Shown here one piece after another: positions 3,734 to 14,677 of a stretch of 64,000 nucleotides of DNA. The DNA is taken from assembly GCA_016783355.1 (NCBI GenBank), contig JADHWR010000001.1, positions 6,072 through 70,071 on the forward strand, given 5' to 3'. Within the stretch, counting starts at the first letter, position 1, and the number at the start of each line of letters is the position of its first letter. Below the pieces are notes generated by a model that saw only the letters and a program-made list of their open reading frames with translations, was not told the DNA's origin and ran no database searches. A program made the translations under genes and the position numbers. The stretch is from Candidatus Omnitrophota bacterium (GTDB lineage: Bacteria; Omnitrophota; Gorgyraeia; Gygaellales; JAHJCI01).

Positions 3734-4204
3734 TTACCATTTAAAATGGGCAAATGCCCGATTTGCCTCAGCCATCTTATGCAAATCGTCTCGCTTTTTA
3801 ATCACTGCCCCTTCTCCCCGGAAACTTGCTACTATTTCATCAGCCAGCTTCTCTTGCATTGACTTTCCCTTTCTTCCCCGCGCAATATTTCTCATCCAAC
3901 GCAAGGCTAAAACAATACCCCTCTCCCTCCTTACCTCTGTGGGTACCTGGTAAGTAGCGCCTCCAATGCGACGAGACTTAACTTCTAATCGTGGACGAGT
4001 ATTATCTAAGACCTTAGAAAAAATCTTTAAAGCATCTGATTCGCCAAGGCGCTCTTTTGCCAACTCAAAGGCACCATAGACAATACGTTGGGCAGTGGAT
4101 TTTTTGCCATCAAGCATAACCATATTGATAAATTTACTTACTACCTTATTCTTGAACCTTGGGTCTAATTGAATTTTCTTCTCTGGTACTCTTCGCCTTC
4201 TCAT
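3734..4204 (-). CDS. rpsG: 30S ribosomal protein S7
   Basis: 156 aa. Has the DGKKS.A..IVY and [16 protein letters not shown] motifs. Confidence 0.95.
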
Positions 4205-4572
4205 TTCGGCCTCTTTGCCCCATACTTGGAGCGTGACCTCATCCTCTTCTCCACCCCTGCTGTATCTGATGTCCCACGAATAATATGATAGCGCACGCCG
4301 GGTAAATCCTTAACCCGGCCGCCTCTAATCAAAACAATAGAATGTTCTTGTAAATTATGACCCTCGCCAGGTATATATGCCGTAATCTCCATGCCTGAAG
4401 TTAACCGCACACGTGCAATTTTGCGCAAAGCAGAATTTGGCTTTTTGGGAGTCATTGTACGTACCTGCACACATACACCCCGCCTTTGCGGACATCGGCC
4501 CAATGCGGGGGATTTGGTTTTTTTCGTCTTTCTCTTCCTTCCCAATCTGATTAGCTGTACAATTGTAGGCAT
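4201..4572 (-). CDS. rpsL: 30S ribosomal protein S12
   Basis: 123 aa. Has [18 protein letters not shown] and [13 protein letters not shown]. Confidence 0.96.
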
Positions 4573-4579
4573 AATTTTA

Positions 4580-7500
4580 CTAAGTTACCTTTTCCATCTG
4601 CGCCTCTCGATGTGCAATAAAGCCGGTTCCTGCAGGAATTAAATGTCCAACAATCACATTTTCCTTCAATCCATATAAAACATCCCGTGCACCACGAGAA
4701 GCAGCATCGGTCAAAACCCGTGTTGTCTCCTGGAAGCTTGCTGCAGAAATAAAGCTATCTGTGCTCAATGATGCCCTGGTAATACCTTGCAACTGTGGTG
4801 TGGCTGAAGCAGGAGTGCCGCCCTTTTTCATCACACGCTCATTCTCGGTTTTAAATCTCAATTTATCCACTAATTCTCCAGGTAAAAATTCTGTATCTCC
4901 AGAGTCTTCTATACGCACTTTCTTCAGAATCTGTCGAATAATCAATTCAACGTGCTTATCACTAATCTGCACCCCTTGTAAACGATAGACTTCCTGAATC
5001 TCATTCAAAAGATACTCTGCAAGTCTTTTGTCTCCACAAATACGCAAGATTTCCTGAAGCACAACTGGTCCATCTGTAAGCTGGTCGCCGGCGCTGACGC
5101 GGTCCCCTTTATAAACGTTGGGGTGCTTACCATGGGGCATAATATACTCACGCTCCATGCCTGTCGGTGAACGGACAATAATTATTCGTTCGCCTTTCTT
5201 GCCTTCTCCAAATTCTACAAATCCATCAATCTCACTAATTATTGCCGGATTCTTTGGTCGGCGTATCTCAAATAATTCGGCAACGCGCGGCAGACCTCCT
5301 GTAATATCATGGGTTTTGGCAATGATGCGTGGGGTCTTCGCTAAACAGGCTCCTGCATTAATCTGCTCGGTATCCTTAACTAAAACATGGGCGCCTACGG
5401 GGAGCGGATAAAGACTGAGCACATCTTCTTTCTCATCTAAAATAACAATCTGAGGATGATATTCTTGTTTATGCTCCATCACTACTCGCTCAGTAACCTT
5501 GGTTACAGGATTAAACTCATCCTCAATACTAACTCCTGGAATTAAATCCTCAAATCTAACCCGGCCAGCTACTTCTGTCAAAATCGGAGAGTTATAAGGA
5601 TCCCAATGGACAAAAGCCATTCCCTTCTCAGTCAAAGTCTTATCAGCAAAAGCAACCAGCCCTCCATAGGGTACGGTATAACGTTCAAGTTCCCGGCCTT
5701 CCTGATCATTAATACTAATTACGCCATTACGATTAAGCACAAGAAATTCTTTGCCCACCCTTACTATTTTTAAGTTATGGTAGGTTAATATGCCTTTGTT
5801 TCTTGATTTTATCGAAGAGCGCTCAATCACACGAGAAGCTGTTCCGCCAATATGAAATGTGCGCATAGTAAGTTGTGTGCCGGGTTCGCCGATACTCTGA
5901 GCAGCAATTATTCCTACTGCCTCGCCTAATTCAACCTGCTTTCCCCGGGCAAGGTCCCGGCCATAACAGGTGGCGCAAATCCCCCTTTCTGCCTCGCAGA
6001 TAAGAACACTGCGTATCCTTATCTTCTCAATACCTAAACGCTCAATAATATCTGCCTTCTCTTCAGTAATCTCTTTGCCTGCCTCAACAATAACCTCATC
6101 AGTAATAATATCAACAATGTTATCGAGGGCAGTCCTTCCCACGATACGCTCGCGAAGAGGTATAACCACCTCATCTCCTTCAATAAGTGCGCTAACTGTA
6201 ATTCCATTAAGTGTACCGCAATCCTTCCTGGTTACAATTATATCCTGAGCAACATCTACCAATCGGCGAGTAAGATATCCTGCATCAGCTGTCTTTAGGG
6301 CTGTATCAGCGAGTCCTTTTCTTGCGCCATGTGTGGAGATAAAATATTCAAGAACGGTTAAACCCTCACGAAAATTTGCTGTAATAGGAGTTTCGATAAT
6401 CTCGCCTGATGGTTTTGCCATCAATCCACGCATTCCGCAAAGCTGCCTCACCTGCAGGCGCGAACCTCTTGCACCAGAATCAGCCATCATAAAGATTGGG
6501 TTAAAGGGTGTCATTTGCGAAAAGAGATAGTCAGTAACCCTATCTGTAGCATGTGTCCAGATATCAACAACACGATTAGATTTTTCTCTCTCTGTAATTA
6601 TGCCGTCTTTATAAAGCGTATCTACTTTGTCAACCTCGTTCTGTGCCTTCTTTATAACCTCTGCTTTTTGTGAGGGAATATGCAAATCCCCAATGGCAAT
6701 CGTGATACCCCCTAAGGTGGCAAATTCAAAGCCTTGTTCTTTTATTTCATCTAACAACTGAATTGTTCGTGCGTGACCAAAGCGTTTGTAGCATTCATCG
6801 ATTATATCGGCAACCAAGAATCTATTTAATTCCCTATTTACAAATCCAAAACCCTCCGGCAGCACTTGATTGAAGATGATTCTTCCCACTGTTGTTGTAA
6901 TTAGCCCTGTTGAGTCTTTAGCCTTTCTCTCATCCAGATCATATACCTTATTGACTTTCGTCTTTATCAATTCATGTAGGTCAATTATCTTATCGTTGTA
7001 CGCAGAGAGTGCCGCCGCAGGCGTGCTAAAGATTAAATCCTTTATCTTGCCGGCAGAGCCTTGCTTGGTAAAATAATTGCAACCCAGAATGATATCCTGT
7101 GTAGGCGATGTAATCGGCCGGCCATTGGCAGGAGAAAACATATTATTAATCGAAAGCATTAAAAGCTTTGCCTCCATCTGTGATTCCAACGACAGGGGGA
7201 CATGCACAGCCATCTGGTCACCATCAAAATCAGCATTAAAAGCGGCACATACCAAGGGATGGATCTTGATTGCCTTGCCCTCAATAAGTCTTGGTTGAAA
7301 TGCCTGCATACTTAAACGATGCAAGGTTGGTGCGCGATTCAAAAGCACGGGATGGTCACTTACAACTTCCTCGAGAATATCCCAAACCTCAACCTTTCCC
7401 CGCTCAACCATTCGGCGTGCCCCCTTAATTGTATGAACAAAGCCTTTCTGGCATAACCTCTTAATAATAAATGGCTCAAATAACTCAACCGCCATCTGCT

Positions 7501-10500
7501 TGGGAAGACCGCACTCTTGCATTTTCAGTTTTGGCTCAACAACAATTACCGAACGACCAGAGTAATCTACACGTTTACCTAAAAGATTCTGCCTGAAACG
7601 ACCCTGCTTTCCTTTAAGCATATCCGCAAGGGATTTTAGGGGTCGATTATTCGCCGTCAAGACTGCGCGGCCATGTCTTCCGTTATCAAAAAGCGCATCC
7701 ACTGCCTCTTGAAGCATTCTTTTTTCATTGCGAATAATAATATCCGGAGAATTTAACTCAATCAGTTTTTTTAGACGGTTGTTGCGATTAATCACCTGAC
7801 GATATAAATCATTCAAATCAGAAGTAGCAAATCTACCGCCATCTAAAGGAACCAGAGGCCTTAGGTCTGGCGGTATAACAGGAAGAACCTCCAAAACCAT
7901 CCATTCAGGCTTGTTGCCTGACTTTTTATAATCCTCGACAAACTTAAGATTTTTTAATAACTTTCGACGAGAAAGATTATCTTTAGACTGAGCGAGGGTT
8001 TTTTTCATTCTGGCAATCAGCTCATCTAAATCTGCTTCCTTCAATAAATCCTGAATTGCCCCTGCTCCAATTTTAGAGACAAAACCTTTATGTTTTTGTC
8101 GTGCTTGTGTATTTTCCTCTTCTGGAAGAAGTTGGCCCCTTTTATACGGCGAATCGCCTGGCTCGCTCACAACGTATGCCTCATAATAAATTATCTTTTC
8201 CAACTCACGCAGCCCCAAACCCAATATGGCCGAAAGCCTGCCGGAGACAACCTTAAAAAACCAGACATGTGTTACGGGTGCGGCTAATTCTATCTGTCCC
8301 ATGCGCTGACGGCGCACCATCGAATGCGCCACGGTTACGCCGCAACGGTCACAGGTAATTCCCTTAAACTTTATACCCTTATATTTGCCGCAGTGACACT
8401 CCCAGTCCTTCGCTGGCCCAAAAATCCTTTCGCAAAAGAGTCCATCTTTTTCCGGCTTAAGCGTACGATAATTAATTGTTTCTGCCTTTCTCACCTCGCC
8501 GCTTGACCAGCTGCGAATAACCTGTGGCGAGGCGATCTTTATACCTAAACTTTCAAATTGATTTGGGTTCTCCTCCCTTAGCTCCTGCTTTTCTATACGA
8601 ATATCAAGACATAAAGCTTGTAATTCTTTCATCAATACATGAAATGACTCGGGAATTCCGGGAAAAATCCTTTGTTCTCCTTTGACAATTGCCTCGTAAA
8701 TTTTTGTCCGGCCGCTAACATCGTCGCTTTTCACGGTAAGCATCTCTTGTAAAATAAAGGCAGCGCCATAGGCCTCTAAAGCCCAAACCTCCATCTCTCC
8801 TAAGCGCTGACCCCCAAACTGTGCCTTTCCTCCTAAAGGCTGCTGAGTAACTAAAGAATAGGGGCCTATAGAGCGGGCATGAATCTTCTCCTCAACAAGA
8901 TGAATCAACTTCATCATATAAATATATCCCACAGAGATATTTTGGGCAAAGGGCTCGCCTGTATAGCCGTCAAAGAGTGTAATTTTACTATCCTCAGGTA
9001 GCCGTGCTTCTTTAAGCATTTGCCTTATTTCTTCCTCGCTTGCTCCATCAAATACAGGAGAGGCAACTTTTATACCCAGACTATGCGCTGCCCAACCAAG
9101 ATGAGTCTCTAAAATCTGGCCGACATTCATGCGCGAAGGAACGCCTAAAGGATTTAAAACAATCTCGACTGGTTCCCCCGATGGCAAAAAGGGCATATCT
9201 TCTTCTGGTAAAATTCTTGCAACTATCCCCTTATTGCCATGACGGCCGGATAACTTATCTCCCTCTTGAAGCCTGTGCTTTGTAGCAATATAGACGATAA
9301 CCTGCTTAAGAACACCGCTCGGTAATTCATCGCCCCGACGCACTGCTTCAATCTCCTGCTTCATCTGAATATCCAATGCCTTGATCTGTTCTACATAAGG
9401 CTGGTTTATCTGGTTTGTTTCAGGATACGTACTTAAATCTAAGTCTGTTAATTCCTCTCTATCTACTTTTAAAACGTCGCACAGCCGCCTCATTCTTTCT
9501 TTATTAAGGAATTCCCTCTCTTCCTTATAATATTGTTTTATCTCCTTAATTCTTTTCTGCTGGCGCAACTTCTCTTCTTTAGACTTCCTCCCTCGCTCTC
9601 GACGACTAAATTCATCAATATGCACGACGATACCTTCGATACCGGGCGGAACAACTAACGAGGTATCGCGCACATCTTCAGCTTTTTTACCAAATATTGC
9701 GCGCAAGAGTCTCTCTTCCGCAGAAAGCTCTGATTCAGTGGTCGGTGTAACCTTGCCAACAAGAATATCCCCTGGCTCAGCCCAGGCGCCAATGCGCACA
9801 ATACCATTTTCGCCAAGACTAAGCAATGCCTCTTCGCTAACATTAGGAATATCCCGCGTAATCTCCTCGTTGCCTAAGCGCGTCTCTGTGGCTTCGATTT
9901 CCAACTTCTCGATATGAATAGAAGTAAAGGCATCTTCCTTGACTATCTTTTCAGAAATCAAGATTGCATCTTCAAAATTGTATCCTCGCCAGGGCATAAA
10001 GGCCACCAATAGGTTTCTGCCCAAAGCAAGTTCTCCATCTTGGGTTGCTATCCCATCGGCAATGATCTGACCTTCTTCTACAAAATCCCCTAACAAAACC
10101 AGCGGTCTTTGATTTATGCAAGTATCGGCATTGGTGCGCAGGAATTTCTTCAATCGATAAGTCTTTTTTCCAATGATGATTGTGGAGGCATCAACAAAGG
10201 TTACCTTGCCGGCCTCTTCGGCAATCACAACTGCACCAGAATCCTCTGCTATCTTCCTTTCCATCATTGTTCCTACAAGAGGTGCCTGCGGATTAAGCAG
10301 TGGCACTGCTTGACGCTGCATATTGGCTCCCATCAATGCGCGATTGGCATCATCGTGCTCTAAAAAAGGAATTAAGGAAGCGGATATCGAAATCAATTGC
10401 TTACAAGACACATCCATAAACTCCACCTTTTTGGCCGCAAGCTTGGGAAAATCAGCTTTAAAACGACAAGATACATCCTTCTCTAAAAGATGACCCCCCT

Positions 10501-11980
10501 TATCCAAGGCAGCATTAGCCTGCGCAATCACCTTTTGCTCATCCAGATCAGCAGTTAGGTATTCAATCTGCTTGGTTGCTTTTGCGTCTTTTACTTTGCG
10601 ATAAGGTGTCTCTAATAAACCGAGGGGGTTAATCCGGGCATATGTAGTCAAGGAAGTAATCAAGCCGATGTTTGGACCCTCGGGGGTTTCTATGGGACAG
10701 AGACGGCCATAATGTGAAGAATGTATATCTCTTACCTCAAAACTGGCGCGCTCGCGCGAGAGGCCACCCGGACCCAAAGCACTCAGCCGGCGTTTATGGG
10801 TTAACTCCGCTAATGGATTTACCTGATCCATAAACTGCGAGAGTTGACCGCGTGTAAAAAAATCATGGATTTGATTGGAAAAAATTTTGAAATTTATGAG
10901 ATGGTAAATGGTTAAGTCTTCTGTCTCGCCCATCAATGTCAATCTTTCTCGAATATTACGTTCAATTCGCGCAAGCCCAATGCGCACCTGATTCTGAGCT
11001 AATTCTGCTACAGTACGTACCCGCCGATTACCCAAATGGTCGATATCATCAATCTTTCCTTTTCCCTCTTTTAAACCGATAAGATAGTTAATAACCTTAA
11101 TTACTGTTTCGTAATCAAGAACTCTTTTATCCAGAGGGGTATCCATTCCTAATTTGCGGTTGAGGATAAATCTGCCGCAGCGACTGAGGTCATACCGGCG
11201 CACATCAAAAAATAAGCGGTAAAATAACTCGGCTGCTGCCTCGGGCGTAACCGGCTCACCCGGCCGCATCTTACGGAAAAAGTCTAATAGAGCTTCTTCT
11301 TTACTCTTTGTGTAATCCCTTTGCAGTGTATTGTTAATTACTGTATTATCTTTTCCAAAAAAACTTTGAATTTCTTCATCAGAGCTTAAACCTAATATAC
11401 GCAGGATCTGTGTGACGGGAAATGTCCGTCGACGATCAATAACTGCCAATATGGCTTCTGAAATATCATATTTAAATTCCAACCATGTTCCCCGATAAGG
11501 AATAATCCTTCCATAAAAAATGCGCTTTCCTGTTATATGCGTTTCCTCTTCAAAAGAAACACCGGGAGAACGATGAAGTTGAAAGATGACAACACGCTCA
11601 TCGCCATTAATAATAAAAGAGGCAGTAGGGGTCATCAAAGGAACCTCACCAAAAAACACATCCTGTTCTAATGTCCTGCTGGCAGAGATAAATCTAAATC
11701 TTACCCATAGTGGTGCAGCATAAGTCATTCCTCTTGTTTTACATTCCTCAATATCATATTTTGGATTACCCAATACATAATTGATAAACTCAAGCCGTAT
11801 GTGCCGGCTCGGTGTTTCAATAGGAAAGAAATTAAGAAACTCTTCCTGTAATCCTGAGCATCGCCTCTCTGAAAAAGGAACATCTTTTTGCAAAAAATCC
11901 TTATAGGCCTTGAGCTGATGCCTCAGAAGATTGGGTACTGAATATACTTCCTTTAGTTTTGCAAAACTCTTTCTCTTCAA
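4580..11980 (-). CDS. rpoBC: fused DNA-directed RNA polymerase beta-beta' subunit (RpoB-RpoC in one 2466-aa ORF)
   Basis: The N-terminal ~1130 aa carry RpoB motifs (GRHGNKG, the [10 protein letters not shown] region, C-terminal [15 protein letters not shown]). The ORF continues without a stop into the RpoC N-terminus ([36 protein letters not shown], zinc motif [21 protein letters not shown]). The junction is near 8545-8600. Confidence 0.9.
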
Positions 11981-11993
11981 CTTATGTCCTCAC

Positions 11994-12383
11994 TTATTTC
12001 AATTCTACGGTTGCTCCTGTTGCTTCTAATTTCTTCTTTAATTCCTCTGCTTCTTCTTTGGATACGTCCTCTTTTATTGGTTTAGGCGCAGAATCCACTA
12101 AATCCTTAGCCTCCTTCAGGCCAAGACTGGTTACCGCACGAACCTCTTTTATGACAGATATCTTATTGCTGCCTACACTGCTCAATACTACTGTAAATGT
12201 TGTCTTCTCTTCCTCTGCCGCAGCGCCTGCAGTAGTTGCTGCACCAGTATCTGCTGCGCCTGCAACAAGAGGGATATTTCCTGATACACCGAATTTCTCC
12301 TCCAGTGCCTTTACCAACTCGGAAAGCTCTAAAACACTCATTCCTCCAATTGATTCCATCAACTCTTCTACTTTTGTGGCCAT
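11994..12383 (-). CDS. rplL: 50S ribosomal protein L7/L12
   Basis: 129 aa. Has an Ala/Gly-rich hinge and C-terminal [16 protein letters not shown]....[24 protein letters not shown]. Confidence 0.95.
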
Positions 12384-12397
12384 TTTTTACCCCCTTT

Positions 12398-12492
12398 AAT
12401 GAGTCCGCCAAAGTTCGTTGGCGGACGAATTAATCCCGCTGAGTGTGCCAAAATTATAAAATAGAATTTTGGCACATATTACGAAGCGGGAT
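12398..12492 (-). promoter_or_regulatory. Two-hairpin leader element, copy 1 (rplJ-rplL spacer, ends just before the rplL SD)
   Basis: The minus-strand RNA reads AUCCCGCUUCGUAAUAUGUGCCAAAAUUCUAUUUUAUAAUUUUGGCACACUCAGCGGGAUUAAUUCGUCCGCCAACGAACUUUGGCGGACUCAUU, followed by AAAGGGGG-N7-AUG. The architecture matches 56938-57031 and 62985-63085. Confidence 0.7.
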
Positions 12493-12496
12493 AAGT

Positions 12497-13042
12497 TTAA
12501 CCCTTTACAGGTCTATGCTTCATTTTGATCTCTTTCAACACATAGACTAATTTACTCAATAATTGTCTTAAGCCGAACGCAAGCCCAAATATGGGCAGAT
12601 TTAGCCCCCCGGCTATACGGGCATAAAGAGAAGCTAAAGATGGGACCAAAGAAAGAGAATTTAAATCCTCTGCTGTGATAATTCTCTTTTTACTAATCAA
12701 CCATCCTCCCTTTATTTCCAAATTGCTGTTAACTTTCCTAAATTGCGAGATTATGTGCGAAACAGCAATAATGTCGAATTCTGTAAAAATCAAACCAATC
12801 GGCCCCTTGATTAAAGAAAGGAATTTATGCTCACAATCTCTCTCTTTTAAAATTCTGCGCAAAACAGAATTCTTACTTACCAGAAAAGAGGCATCCGTTT
12901 TTCTTAATGACTTTCTTAAATCGTTTAAACCTGTGGCCTTCACGCCTGAATAATCAACAACAAAGAAGTTATCTGCTTTATCGAGTCTTTCGTTAATTGC
13001 CTTGGTTATCTCTTCTTTTATCAGTAGGCCTATCTTTTTCAT
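12497..13042 (-). CDS. rplJ: 50S ribosomal protein L10
   Basis: 181 aa, located between rplA and rplL. The N-terminal region (F.V.DY.G....L..LR..L) is L10-like. Confidence 0.88.
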   Translation of the reverse strand: MKKIGLLIKEEITKAINERLDKADNFFVVDYSGVKATGLNDLRKSLRKTDASFLVSKNSVLRRILKERDCEHKFLSLIKGPIGLIFTEFDIIAVSHIISQFRKVNSNLEIKGGWLISKKRIITAEDLNSLSLVPSLASLYARIAGGLNLPIFGLAFGLRQLLSKLVYVLKEIKMKHRPVKG

Positions 13043-13045
13043 CTT

Positions 13046-13726
13046 TTAAATAATAATACTTAAGCCCGGATTCATTGTTGAGCTCAAAATTGCCCTCTTA
13101 ATAAATTTCACCCTTAGCCCCTCTGGTTGAGCAAGCTTCACTGCTTCAATTACAGAAGATATATTAGCCAGAAGTTTCTCTGGAGCAAAAGAAATTCTGC
13201 CAACAGACAAATGAATCCCGCTAAGTTTGTCAACTTTAAACTCAACCTTGCCCTTTTTTAATTCTTCGATGGCGCCAGCCACATTATTGGTAACAGTGCC
13301 TGTTTTTGGACTGGGCATAAGTCCGCGCGGACCGAGTATTTTTCCTAAGCGAGAAACAGTCTTCATCATTTCGGGCGTAGCAATAACACGCTCAAAATCC
13401 AGGAAGCCGGCAGCCACCTTCTGTATTAAATCTTCTGCCCCTACAAAATCTGCACCTTTATCCTTTGCTGCTGCTGCTTCTTCGCCTTTAGCAAAAACAG
13501 CAATTCTCACTTTTTTCCCTGTTCCATGCGGCAACAATACTGTGCCGCGAACCATCTGCTCTGACCTCTTTGGGTCAACGCCTAAATGCAAATGTAAATC
13601 CAGAGAGGTATCAAAATTTGCCTTTGTTACTTCTTTTAAAAGCGCAACAGCTTCCTTTAAAGAATACAATTTCTCTTTATCGATGAGCTTCTCTATTTCT
13701 TTGTATCTTCTACTGCGTCTTCTCAT
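13046..13726 (-). CDS. rplA: 50S ribosomal protein L1
   Basis: 226 aa. Has [22 protein letters not shown] and [15 protein letters not shown]. Confidence 0.95.
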
Positions 13727-14150
13727 CTGAACCTACCTTAATCCCCATGCTTCGCGCTGTTCCTTCGACAATCTTCATTGCTTTATCCAGATTCTCCGTG
13801 TTTAAATCGCCCAATTTCTTTTTGGCAATTTCCTCAACTTGTTTTTTTGAAACCACGCCGATTGAATCTCGGCCTGCTGTCGCTGAGGCCTTGGCTAAAT
13901 TAGCCGCACGCTTTAAAAGGATAGAAGTAGGGGGGCTTTTTATAATAAAAGTAAAAGATCTGTCTTTATAAACACTGATCACAACGGGTAAAATCAGGTT
14001 TTCTTTGTCCTTTGTTTGTTCATTGAACTGCTTACAGAATTGCATGATATTAACACCGTGTTGGCCGAGGGTCGGACCCACAGGAGGCGCAGGATTTGCC
14101 GCACCTGCGGGAACATGCAATTTTATCTGCGCTTTAATTTGTTTTGCCAT
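13710..14150 (-). CDS. rplK: 50S ribosomal protein L11
   Basis: 146 aa. Has [28 protein letters not shown]. Confidence 0.95.
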
Positions 14151-14677
14151 TATATCTTTTCAACCTGCCAATACTCCAGCTCTATGGGCGTTGCTCTTCC
14201 AAATATAGAAACAGTAACTTTGATCTTTCCCCGCTCAGGATTAGCCTCATCAACTGCTCCATTAAAATTCACGAACGGTCCTTCTGTTATGCGTACCTGC
14301 TCTCCTTGCTCAAAAGTAATCTTGGGGCTTGGCTTGACTTGAGTACTGGCCATTCTTTTTAGAATATTATCTACTTCTTCTTGTGAAACCGGTGTAGGCT
14401 TTTTGCCCGTGCCAATAAAACCAGTCACACCCGCTGACTTTCTAATCAAGGAATAAAGAGTATTGTTCAACTCTATCTTTAGCAGGAGGTAACCAGGAAA
14501 AAGCTTTCTCTGAGTTACCCTCTTTTTGCCTCCACGAATCTCAGATACCAGCTCTGTCGGTATAATAATTTCCGACATAAGATCCTCTACGCCCGCCTCT
14601 TTTGTTCTATATTCTAAGGTGCGCTTAACCTTTTCTTCGCTTCCTGCCTGACTATGAATGATATACCATTCTTTCAT
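14150..14677 (-). CDS. nusG: transcription termination/antitermination factor NusG
   Basis: 175 aa. Has the WY..H...G.E.KV start and a C-terminal KOW region (G..V.I..GPF..F.G.V), in secE-nusG-rplK synteny. Confidence 0.93.

Follow-up and report, generated by a model that had tools for sequence, protein, structure and literature searches.

A natural in-frame rpoB-rpoC fusion in Candidatus Omnitrophota and a candidate origin from abutting genes

The stretch analyzed here, referred to as the window, comprises 64,000 nucleotides (nt) from a Candidatus Omnitrophota bacterium (GenBank assembly GCA_016783355.1, contig JADHWR010000001.1, positions 6,072 to 70,071), and all positions below are counted from its first letter. 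Its minus strand carries rpoB and rpoC, encoding RNA polymerase's beta and beta' subunits, within one open reading frame (ORF), whose extent and parts are given in Table 1. The ORF listing and the translation contain no internal stop codon across the 2466 codons, bearing out the single 2466-amino-acid (aa) rpoB-rpoC frame proposed by an initial reading made from the letters alone (the sequence-only reading), with all of the peptides it quoted present. The upstream gene rplL ends with a stop codon at 11996-11994, leaving a spacer of 13 nt before the rpoB TTG.

Table 1. Features of the fused rpoB-rpoC locus, in window positions
Feature	Positions	Strand	Remarks
Fused rpoB-rpoC ORF	4580-11980	minus	starts with TTG (11980-11978); 2466 codons and a stop; predicted mass 278 kDa
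RpoB (beta) part	8582-11980	minus	aa 1-1133
RpoC (beta') part	4583-8575	minus	aa 1136-2466
Bridge CTA AGG, Leu1134-Arg1135	8576-8581	minus	two codons between RpoB and RpoC
Out-of-frame TAA	8578-8580	minus	in register with the rpoB stops of relatives
Candidate inserted base C	8581	minus	its deletion gives ..IRIEKQE-TAA, the tail length of 23 of 32 unfused relatives
Purine run AAGGGAGGAG	8570-8579	minus	
Shine-Dalgarno-like GTGAGGA, 5' of the TTG start	11987-11993	minus	

Both RNA polymerase subunits are complete within this ORF. The RpoB part passes the cut-offs of TIGR02013 (1661 bits, cut-off 801) and NF001616 (1586 bits, cut-off 896), and the RpoC part passes that of TIGR02386 (1742 bits, cut-off 963.5), with aa 1145-2458 covered. 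Pfam domains Rpb2_1, 2, 3, 45, 6, and 7 are all present within aa 17-1131, the last residue of Rpb2_7 being aa 1131, and Rpb1 domains 1-5 follow from aa 1140, leaving just aa 1132-1139 between the two sets. The RpoC part retains the catalytic NADFDGD motif at aa 1582 and the cysteines of the N-terminal zinc site at aa 1194-1213 (ECHCGKY at 1194, CDRCGV at 1210). Alignment to solved structures places residue 1341 (of 1342) of E. coli beta at aa 1131 and residue 14 of beta' at aa 1139, so the two homologous regions lie about 7 residues apart and one subunit follows the other with hardly any gap. Among the 60 best PDB matches, none covers both halves.

The linker DNA reads gaaaagcaggagCTAAGGGAGGAGaacccaaatcaatttgaa on the minus strand, with the junction codons ..ATA GAA AAG CAG GAG CTA AGG GAG GAG AAC CCA AAT CAA TTT GAA... 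Translated, IRIEKQE (aa 1127-1133) is followed by L1134, R1135, E1136, E1137, N, P, N, Q, F, E, S, L, and G, and then by IKIASP. The motifs described by the sequence-only reading, an out-of-frame TAA and the purine run behind it, are present, the run lying one base from where it had been placed, at 8579-8570 and not at 8571-8580. Its further observation that no ATG, GTG, or TTG stands in frame from the purine run up to the conserved N-terminus of RpoC was confirmed, the first such codon being the GTG of ..GEVRK.. at aa 1160. Within the ORF, 7.3% of codons (2.8% for TAA) show a stop triplet in the +1 register, and GGAGG occurs in 9 copies, about one per 820 nt, with a roughly 5% chance of one in the 45-nt linker. 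The coding strand of the window holds 95 copies of GGAGG, 18 of which precede an ORF start while 77 do not. Neither the TAA alone nor the GGAGG alone is statistically striking; the weight rests on where the TAA stands with respect to the stops of relatives.

The fusion is genuine and is no sequencing slip. A full-length protein search returned three ENA products of exactly 2466 aa, P0121, P0242, and P0243, which differ from the window protein at 5, 2, and 3 residues, respectively. The gene of P0121 (L084, from ENA assembly ERZ24794679) differs from the window by 12 single-nucleotide polymorphisms (SNPs) in 7401 nt and that of P0242 (L088, from ERZ24794676) by 6 SNPs in 7401 nt, both with no indel and an identical junction; the 1-nt indel that the sequence-only reading had singled out as a concern is thus absent from two further assemblies. 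P0243 is another 2466-aa protein that reads through the junction. The RpoC part is in addition 100% identical to NCBI MBL7080964.1, from a metagenome-assembled genome (MAG) named "Candidatus Omnitrophica bacterium". That record is a 1350-aa beta' whose annotated start is an in-frame ATG in the rpoB tail (8626-8628, M1117), and because it crosses the junction, the annotation conceals the fusion yet confirms the sequence.

Comparison with related genomes, which the sequence-only reading had named as a check, found both fused and unfused rpoB/rpoC among Omnitrophota relatives, and the nearest named proteins, all from Candidatus Omnitrophota or Omnitrophica, include both states close by. The spacing between rpoB and rpoC in the nearest unfused relatives ranges from -35 to +15 nt. 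Stop and start are separated by 2 nt in L083 (TGA TT ATG, then GAG..) and by 3 nt in L081 (TAA GCT ATG), and TAA is followed by 6, 8, and 15 nt and then ATG in L001, L089, and L002, respectively. L082 has TAA+CA+GAA GAA.. with no rpoC start nearby, its called start overlapping rpoB by 34 nt, and the contig of P0079 has a called overlap of 35 nt, a value taken from the gene call. Among the 32 unfused relatives with a readable RpoB tail, 23 end five residues past an aligned R/K/H, as x-E-K-x-x-stop (e.g., RTEKAK-stop, KTEKVK-stop, and HLEKEK-stop). The closest unfused RpoC N-termini (73-78% identity) read M-E-E-x-x-x-F-D-S-I-S-IKIASP, or M-x-E-E.. where they are one residue longer.

The nearest fused relative is P0122 (72% identity, 2477 aa), followed by P0123 (71%, 2486 aa), whose cluster includes NCBI MBU4345879.1 of 2486 aa, and P0124 (71%, 2481 aa), whose cluster has eight full-length members drawn from JGI, ENA, and Logan; another 25 or so fused relatives lie at 53-63% identity. 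The linker is different in each. Measured from PESF to ETINYR, the distance is 171 nt in the window versus 183 nt in P0122, and the two linkers are unalignable beyond their flanks. P0124 has the tail EKVK of its sister joined directly to EESSLFDS (PESF-ETINYR 162 versus 167 nt), a junction that would be equivalent to a clean 5-nt loss relative to L082. Separately, the beta' of another relative, MCG2706645.1, is listed as 1362 aa with its start at a Leu codon of the tail, while other records in its cluster hold the complete 2486-aa product. A junction-centred protein search showed no fused full-length proteins; it apparently lists only matches of about 0.55-1.75 times the query length, and is hence misleading on this point. 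Eighteen proteins from long ENA contigs of other phyla (P0001-P0018, 450-720 aa, combining an RpoB C-end with an RpoC N-end) were considered as a split architecture and rejected; they are taken as frameshifted gene calls because, in the two read at this level, P0001 and P0002, both the junction and the C-end consist of nonsense-like peptide.

In a neighbour-joining tree built from the RpoB C-end (287 aa) and the RpoC N-end (300 aa), fused and unfused sequences are interleaved within the Omnitrophota clade. In a denser tree of the RpoB C-end, the close group of the window is mostly unfused, with the fused window sequence, P0122, P0123, and P0124 scattered. A clade of the window, the fused P0122, and the unfused P0079 has 99.5% support (470 aa, 200 bootstraps), the inner order dividing 53/21/26%. 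Since fused and unfused members stand together in this clade, at least two state changes are needed there and several across the phylum, with the number of events being an estimate, as all of these are rapid distance trees from a single protein. Most fusions in the Omnitrophota area are probably separate events, since the trees place unfused genomes between them.

Against this background, the out-of-frame TAA is probably the former rpoB stop, a plausible idea that the sequence-only reading had already put forward. The window reads R-I-E-K-Q-E, then C8581, then TAA, meeting the stop position of the relatives with a one-base offset. The downstream register agrees, with TAA+GG+GAG GAG in the window, stop + 2 nt + GAA GAA in L082, and stop + 2 nt + ATG GAG in L083. 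The R1135 region aligns with the longer (M-x-E-E) class of RpoC, which sets AGG opposite ATG, and AGG (R1135) is probably the former rpoC ATG altered by one substitution. Simple removal of C8581 was rejected as the full ancestral state, rpoC then having no ATG, GTG, or TTG; as such removal leaves rpoC start-less, a TAATG overlap with a later ATG-to-AGG change is proposed instead. Under this model, the ancestor would have had abutting rpoB and rpoC with a TAATG stop/start overlap (..CAG GAG TAATG GAG GAG AAC..), as expected of translationally coupled genes. A single C, now C8581, would have been inserted before the TAA, giving GAG CTA ATG GAG GAG and carrying the rpoB frame into the rpoC frame. 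The start codon would then no longer have been needed, and the ATG would later have mutated to AGG. Translation would now run from the rpoB TTG (11980) through the two-codon bridge into rpoC, yielding one 2466-aa chain. Both L082 (TAACA GAA GAA) and P0124 (5-base loss) fit a TAATG ancestor. An alternative overlap of the GTGA type (TGA stop, GTG start) was dropped, its fit to the Met-Glu-Glu register of the relatives being poorer. The insertion-at-overlap model is favoured at somewhat better than even chance, and we infer the identity of the inserted tail base, as well as the identity and order of the mutations, from the alignment of the junctions.

The reading as a whole, a genuine in-frame fusion giving a single 2466-aa beta-beta' chain that would serve as the polymerase core, with the origin proposed above as the likely one, is held with high confidence; that a single functional polypeptide is made is what the intact frame predicts. 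Several points weigh against it. All data come from metagenome assemblies and stand at the level of sequence, and the AlphaFold model of a 414-aa junction fragment is too weak for geometry (predicted local distance difference test score, pLDDT, 61; predicted template modelling score, pTM, 0.32). Removing C8581 restores no normal two-gene arrangement, so the insertion model needs a second mutation. The TAA position may be coincidence, at about 7% for any stop triplet at the +1 site. Finally, with the inner order of the supported clade divided, the fusion could be older and common to P0122, in which case a recognizable relic stop would be less expected.

This last point leads to the rival with most in its favour, in which an old fusion was inherited together with P0122 and the TAA and purine run arose by chance in a Glu/Arg/Lys-rich linker, neither being a relic. 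The well-supported clade shared by the window and P0122, the frequency of off-frame stops (7% per codon) and of GGAGG (1 per 820 nt) in the ORF, and a linker without a start codon are all in keeping with it. The same clade, however, holds the unfused P0079, with the unfused P0082 nearby, the linkers of the window and P0122 are of unequal length (171 versus 183 nt) and fail to align beyond the flanks, and the TAA lies in exact register with the stops of relatives while the Glu-Glu codons match their Met-Glu-Glu start; an inherited fusion with chance motifs is therefore considered unlikely. Far less likely is an assembly or sequencing artefact, in which a spurious base near 8581 masks a real TAA and rpoB and rpoC are separate in the living organism. 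The TAA does lie exactly one base out of frame where relatives stop, and the NCBI annotation of the strain has beta' as a separate 1350-aa protein, but that protein reads through the junction and so reflects an annotation choice, giving no evidence of a stop. The window, L084, and L088 moreover carry different SNP patterns around one identical, indel-free junction that P0243 also reads through, the site gagCtaaggg is no homopolymer, and, with the base taken out, the first start codon open to rpoC would be at aa 1160, within the conserved zinc-binding region. Related lineages with clear fusions and other linkers, each in multiple assemblies, also speak against an artefact, which is accordingly rated as very improbable.

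The sequence-only reading had taken the purine run for a Shine-Dalgarno (SD) relic of an intergenic region, an interpretation that finds no support, given that the spacer in relatives is 2-15 nt or an overlap, that the run overlies codons matching the Met-Glu-Glu of relatives, and that GGAGG is common in coding sequence. AAGGGAGGAG probably comprises the tail of the relic stop, the start codon in mutated form, and two RpoC Glu codons. No start codon, or one-step mutant of one, was found in frame 5-12 nt past the run. The most improbable of the rivals holds that, besides the fused protein, beta arises when ribosomes shift +1 onto the TAA and beta' when they initiate internally at the SD-like AAGGGAGGAG. 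SD-like elements, CAGGAG and GGGAGGAG, do stand on either side of the out-of-frame TAA, and internal SD-like elements are known to stimulate frameshifting in prfB and dnaX. Opposing this, GAG-C-UAA offers no slippery sequence for re-pairing of a +1 P-site tRNA, within 5-15 nt of the SD-like element the frame holds no near-cognate start and no ATG, GTG, or TTG, the nearby ATC and TTG are both out of frame and run into TAG, and such purine runs are common in the coding sequence of this genome.

The unfused relative L082 (positions 1830-1900; JGI 3300010319, Ga0136653_10001441) is unusual in its own right. It keeps the rpoB stop (..GAG AAG GCA AAA TAA) and has ACA at the position expected for the rpoC ATG; the gene caller placed the rpoC start 34 nt upstream, within rpoB, and the P0079 contig likewise has a 35-nt called overlap. 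The A-AAA-UAA string of L082 may permit a -1 slip giving ..EKAK-ITEEHLLFDS.., a fused product with the trans-frame peptide ..EKAKITEEHLLFD... A broader idea, doubtful at present, would make Omnitrophota a hot-spot in which the TAATG overlap was converted repeatedly into fusions by different indels, with some unfused relatives perhaps dependent on recoding. The routes may have been a 1-nt insertion in the window, a 5-nt loss in P0123/P0124, and another route in P0122. If true, the single-chain core would be the functional state in much of the clade, whatever the DNA shows.

Public data place the fusion in a wider frame. A HMMER scan of 1.84 billion cluster representatives, with 600 aa on each side of the junction as query, returned 9640 RpoB/RpoC clusters at E < 1e-30, including about 24 fused clusters with one alignment over the junction and about 5 more above 2000 aa. 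This corresponds to some 25-30 fused clusters at 50% identity among the 9640, indicating that the rpoBC fusion is rare overall and extends clearly beyond the two textbook groups. In a GTDB scan, all 73 loci returned have rpoB and rpoC in the same frame and 3 of the 73 are fused, which is no frequency estimate because tblastn ranking makes these loci a biased sample. The three GTDB MAGs concerned, L007, L018, and L052 (each named 'bacterium'), have rpoB and rpoC in one stop-free frame; in the tree, L018 and L052 are placed with P0147, and L007 with P0140-P0144. P0145, a fused protein of 2659 aa with 54 cluster members (JGI), has a long linker rich in Ala and, in the quick tree, falls with sequences of Verrucomicrobiota type, which suggests another independent fusion outside Omnitrophota.

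The surrounding genes form a compact block at 4201-14677, in the order rplK-rplA-rplJ-rplL, 13 nt, rpoBC, 7 nt, rpsL-rpsG-fusA-tuf, too tight for a long attenuator region between rplL and rpoB such as that of E. coli. Over the 64-kb window, the minus strand holds nearly all long ORFs and the GC skew is negative throughout. The rpsL gene of the window (4201-4572) starts 7 nt past the rpoBC stop and encodes 123 aa, as in the fused relatives L086 and L087, versus 89 aa in the ENA gene calls (L084:9511-9780 and L088:8011-8280). The 89-aa version in the ENA annotations is probably a start-site miscall.

The beta-beta' fusion is usually presented as a rare event, limited to Helicobacteraceae and Wolbachia, and has served as a clade marker. 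Here the same fusion is found independently in Omnitrophota, probably several times in a narrow group, and the recurrence is likely due to rpoB and rpoC abutting or overlapping, so that one small indel suffices. In this group, rpoBC fusions are poor phylogenetic markers. Annotation pipelines also hide them, as with the 1350-aa NCBI beta' of this strain that starts in the rpoB tail, and marker-gene workflows expecting separate RpoB and RpoC may mis-score such genomes. A single-chain core would enforce 1:1 stoichiometry and simplify assembly, which, as a conjecture, may suit small streamlined cells. This kind of fusion is already known and opens no long-standing question; the most interesting aspects are its apparent recurrence in Omnitrophota and the start-less rpoC of L082.

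The window protein belongs to neither established family of fused polymerases, scoring 2688 bits against the Helicobacter-type NF007172 (PRK09603; cut-off 5372) and 2607 bits against the Wolbachia-type NF011417 (PRK14844; cut-off 4632). Judged by these scores, below both cut-offs, and by its place in a mostly unfused Omnitrophota clade, the fusion is independent in origin of those in Helicobacter and Wolbachia. The sequence-only reading had called it an independent case, which stands as regards these two groups, but the case is not an isolated one, given the recurrence within Omnitrophota and the 25-30 public clusters. No paper describing an rpoB/rpoC fusion in Omnitrophota was found in the literature searched, and JGI already labels some fused proteins "subunit beta-beta'".

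In the assembled enzyme, the beta C-terminus adjoins the beta' N-terminus, and the fused enzyme of Helicobacter is active. Because these termini are adjacent, a fusion with a linker of about 7 residues should fold to a normal core with fixed 1:1 stoichiometry. An engineered E. coli beta::beta' tethered polymerase, the work of Severinov et al. in J Biol Chem in 1997, was reportedly active; it has the same join of beta C-terminus to beta' N-terminus, artificial there and natural here. An article by Zakharova et al. (1999, J Bacteriol 181:3857) names fused and overlapping genes in its title. The fusion in Helicobacter and Wolinella resembles the present one in having beta and then beta' in one ORF, with order and locus (rplL-rpoBC-rpsL) both shared, and in having arisen among relatives with overlapping or tightly abutting rpoB/rpoC. 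It differs in belonging to another phylum and in its length of about 2890 aa, versus 2466 aa here, where the linker has just about 7 non-homologous residues. Moreover, the fusion in Helicobacter and Wolinella is regarded as a rare genetic event (PMC1557499), a single occurrence that marks the Helicobacteraceae clade, whereas fused and unfused states are interleaved in Omnitrophota. The Wolbachia fusion, mentioned together with that of Helicobacteraceae (PMC7483510, citing Lane & Darst 2010 and Zakharova et al. 1999), is likewise a natural beta-beta' fusion in a small-genome bacterium, but of alphaproteobacterial origin. Further counterparts in public databases are fused rpoBC proteins from Omnitrophota and from uncultured lineages near it (P0122-P0150), among them NCBI MBU4345879.1 and the 2461-aa protein of 'candidate division NPL-UPA2 bacterium Unc8'. 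These share the architecture and gene neighbourhood of the window at 55-72% full-length identity, and differ from it in that linker sequence and length vary in each, the nearest being only 72% identical.

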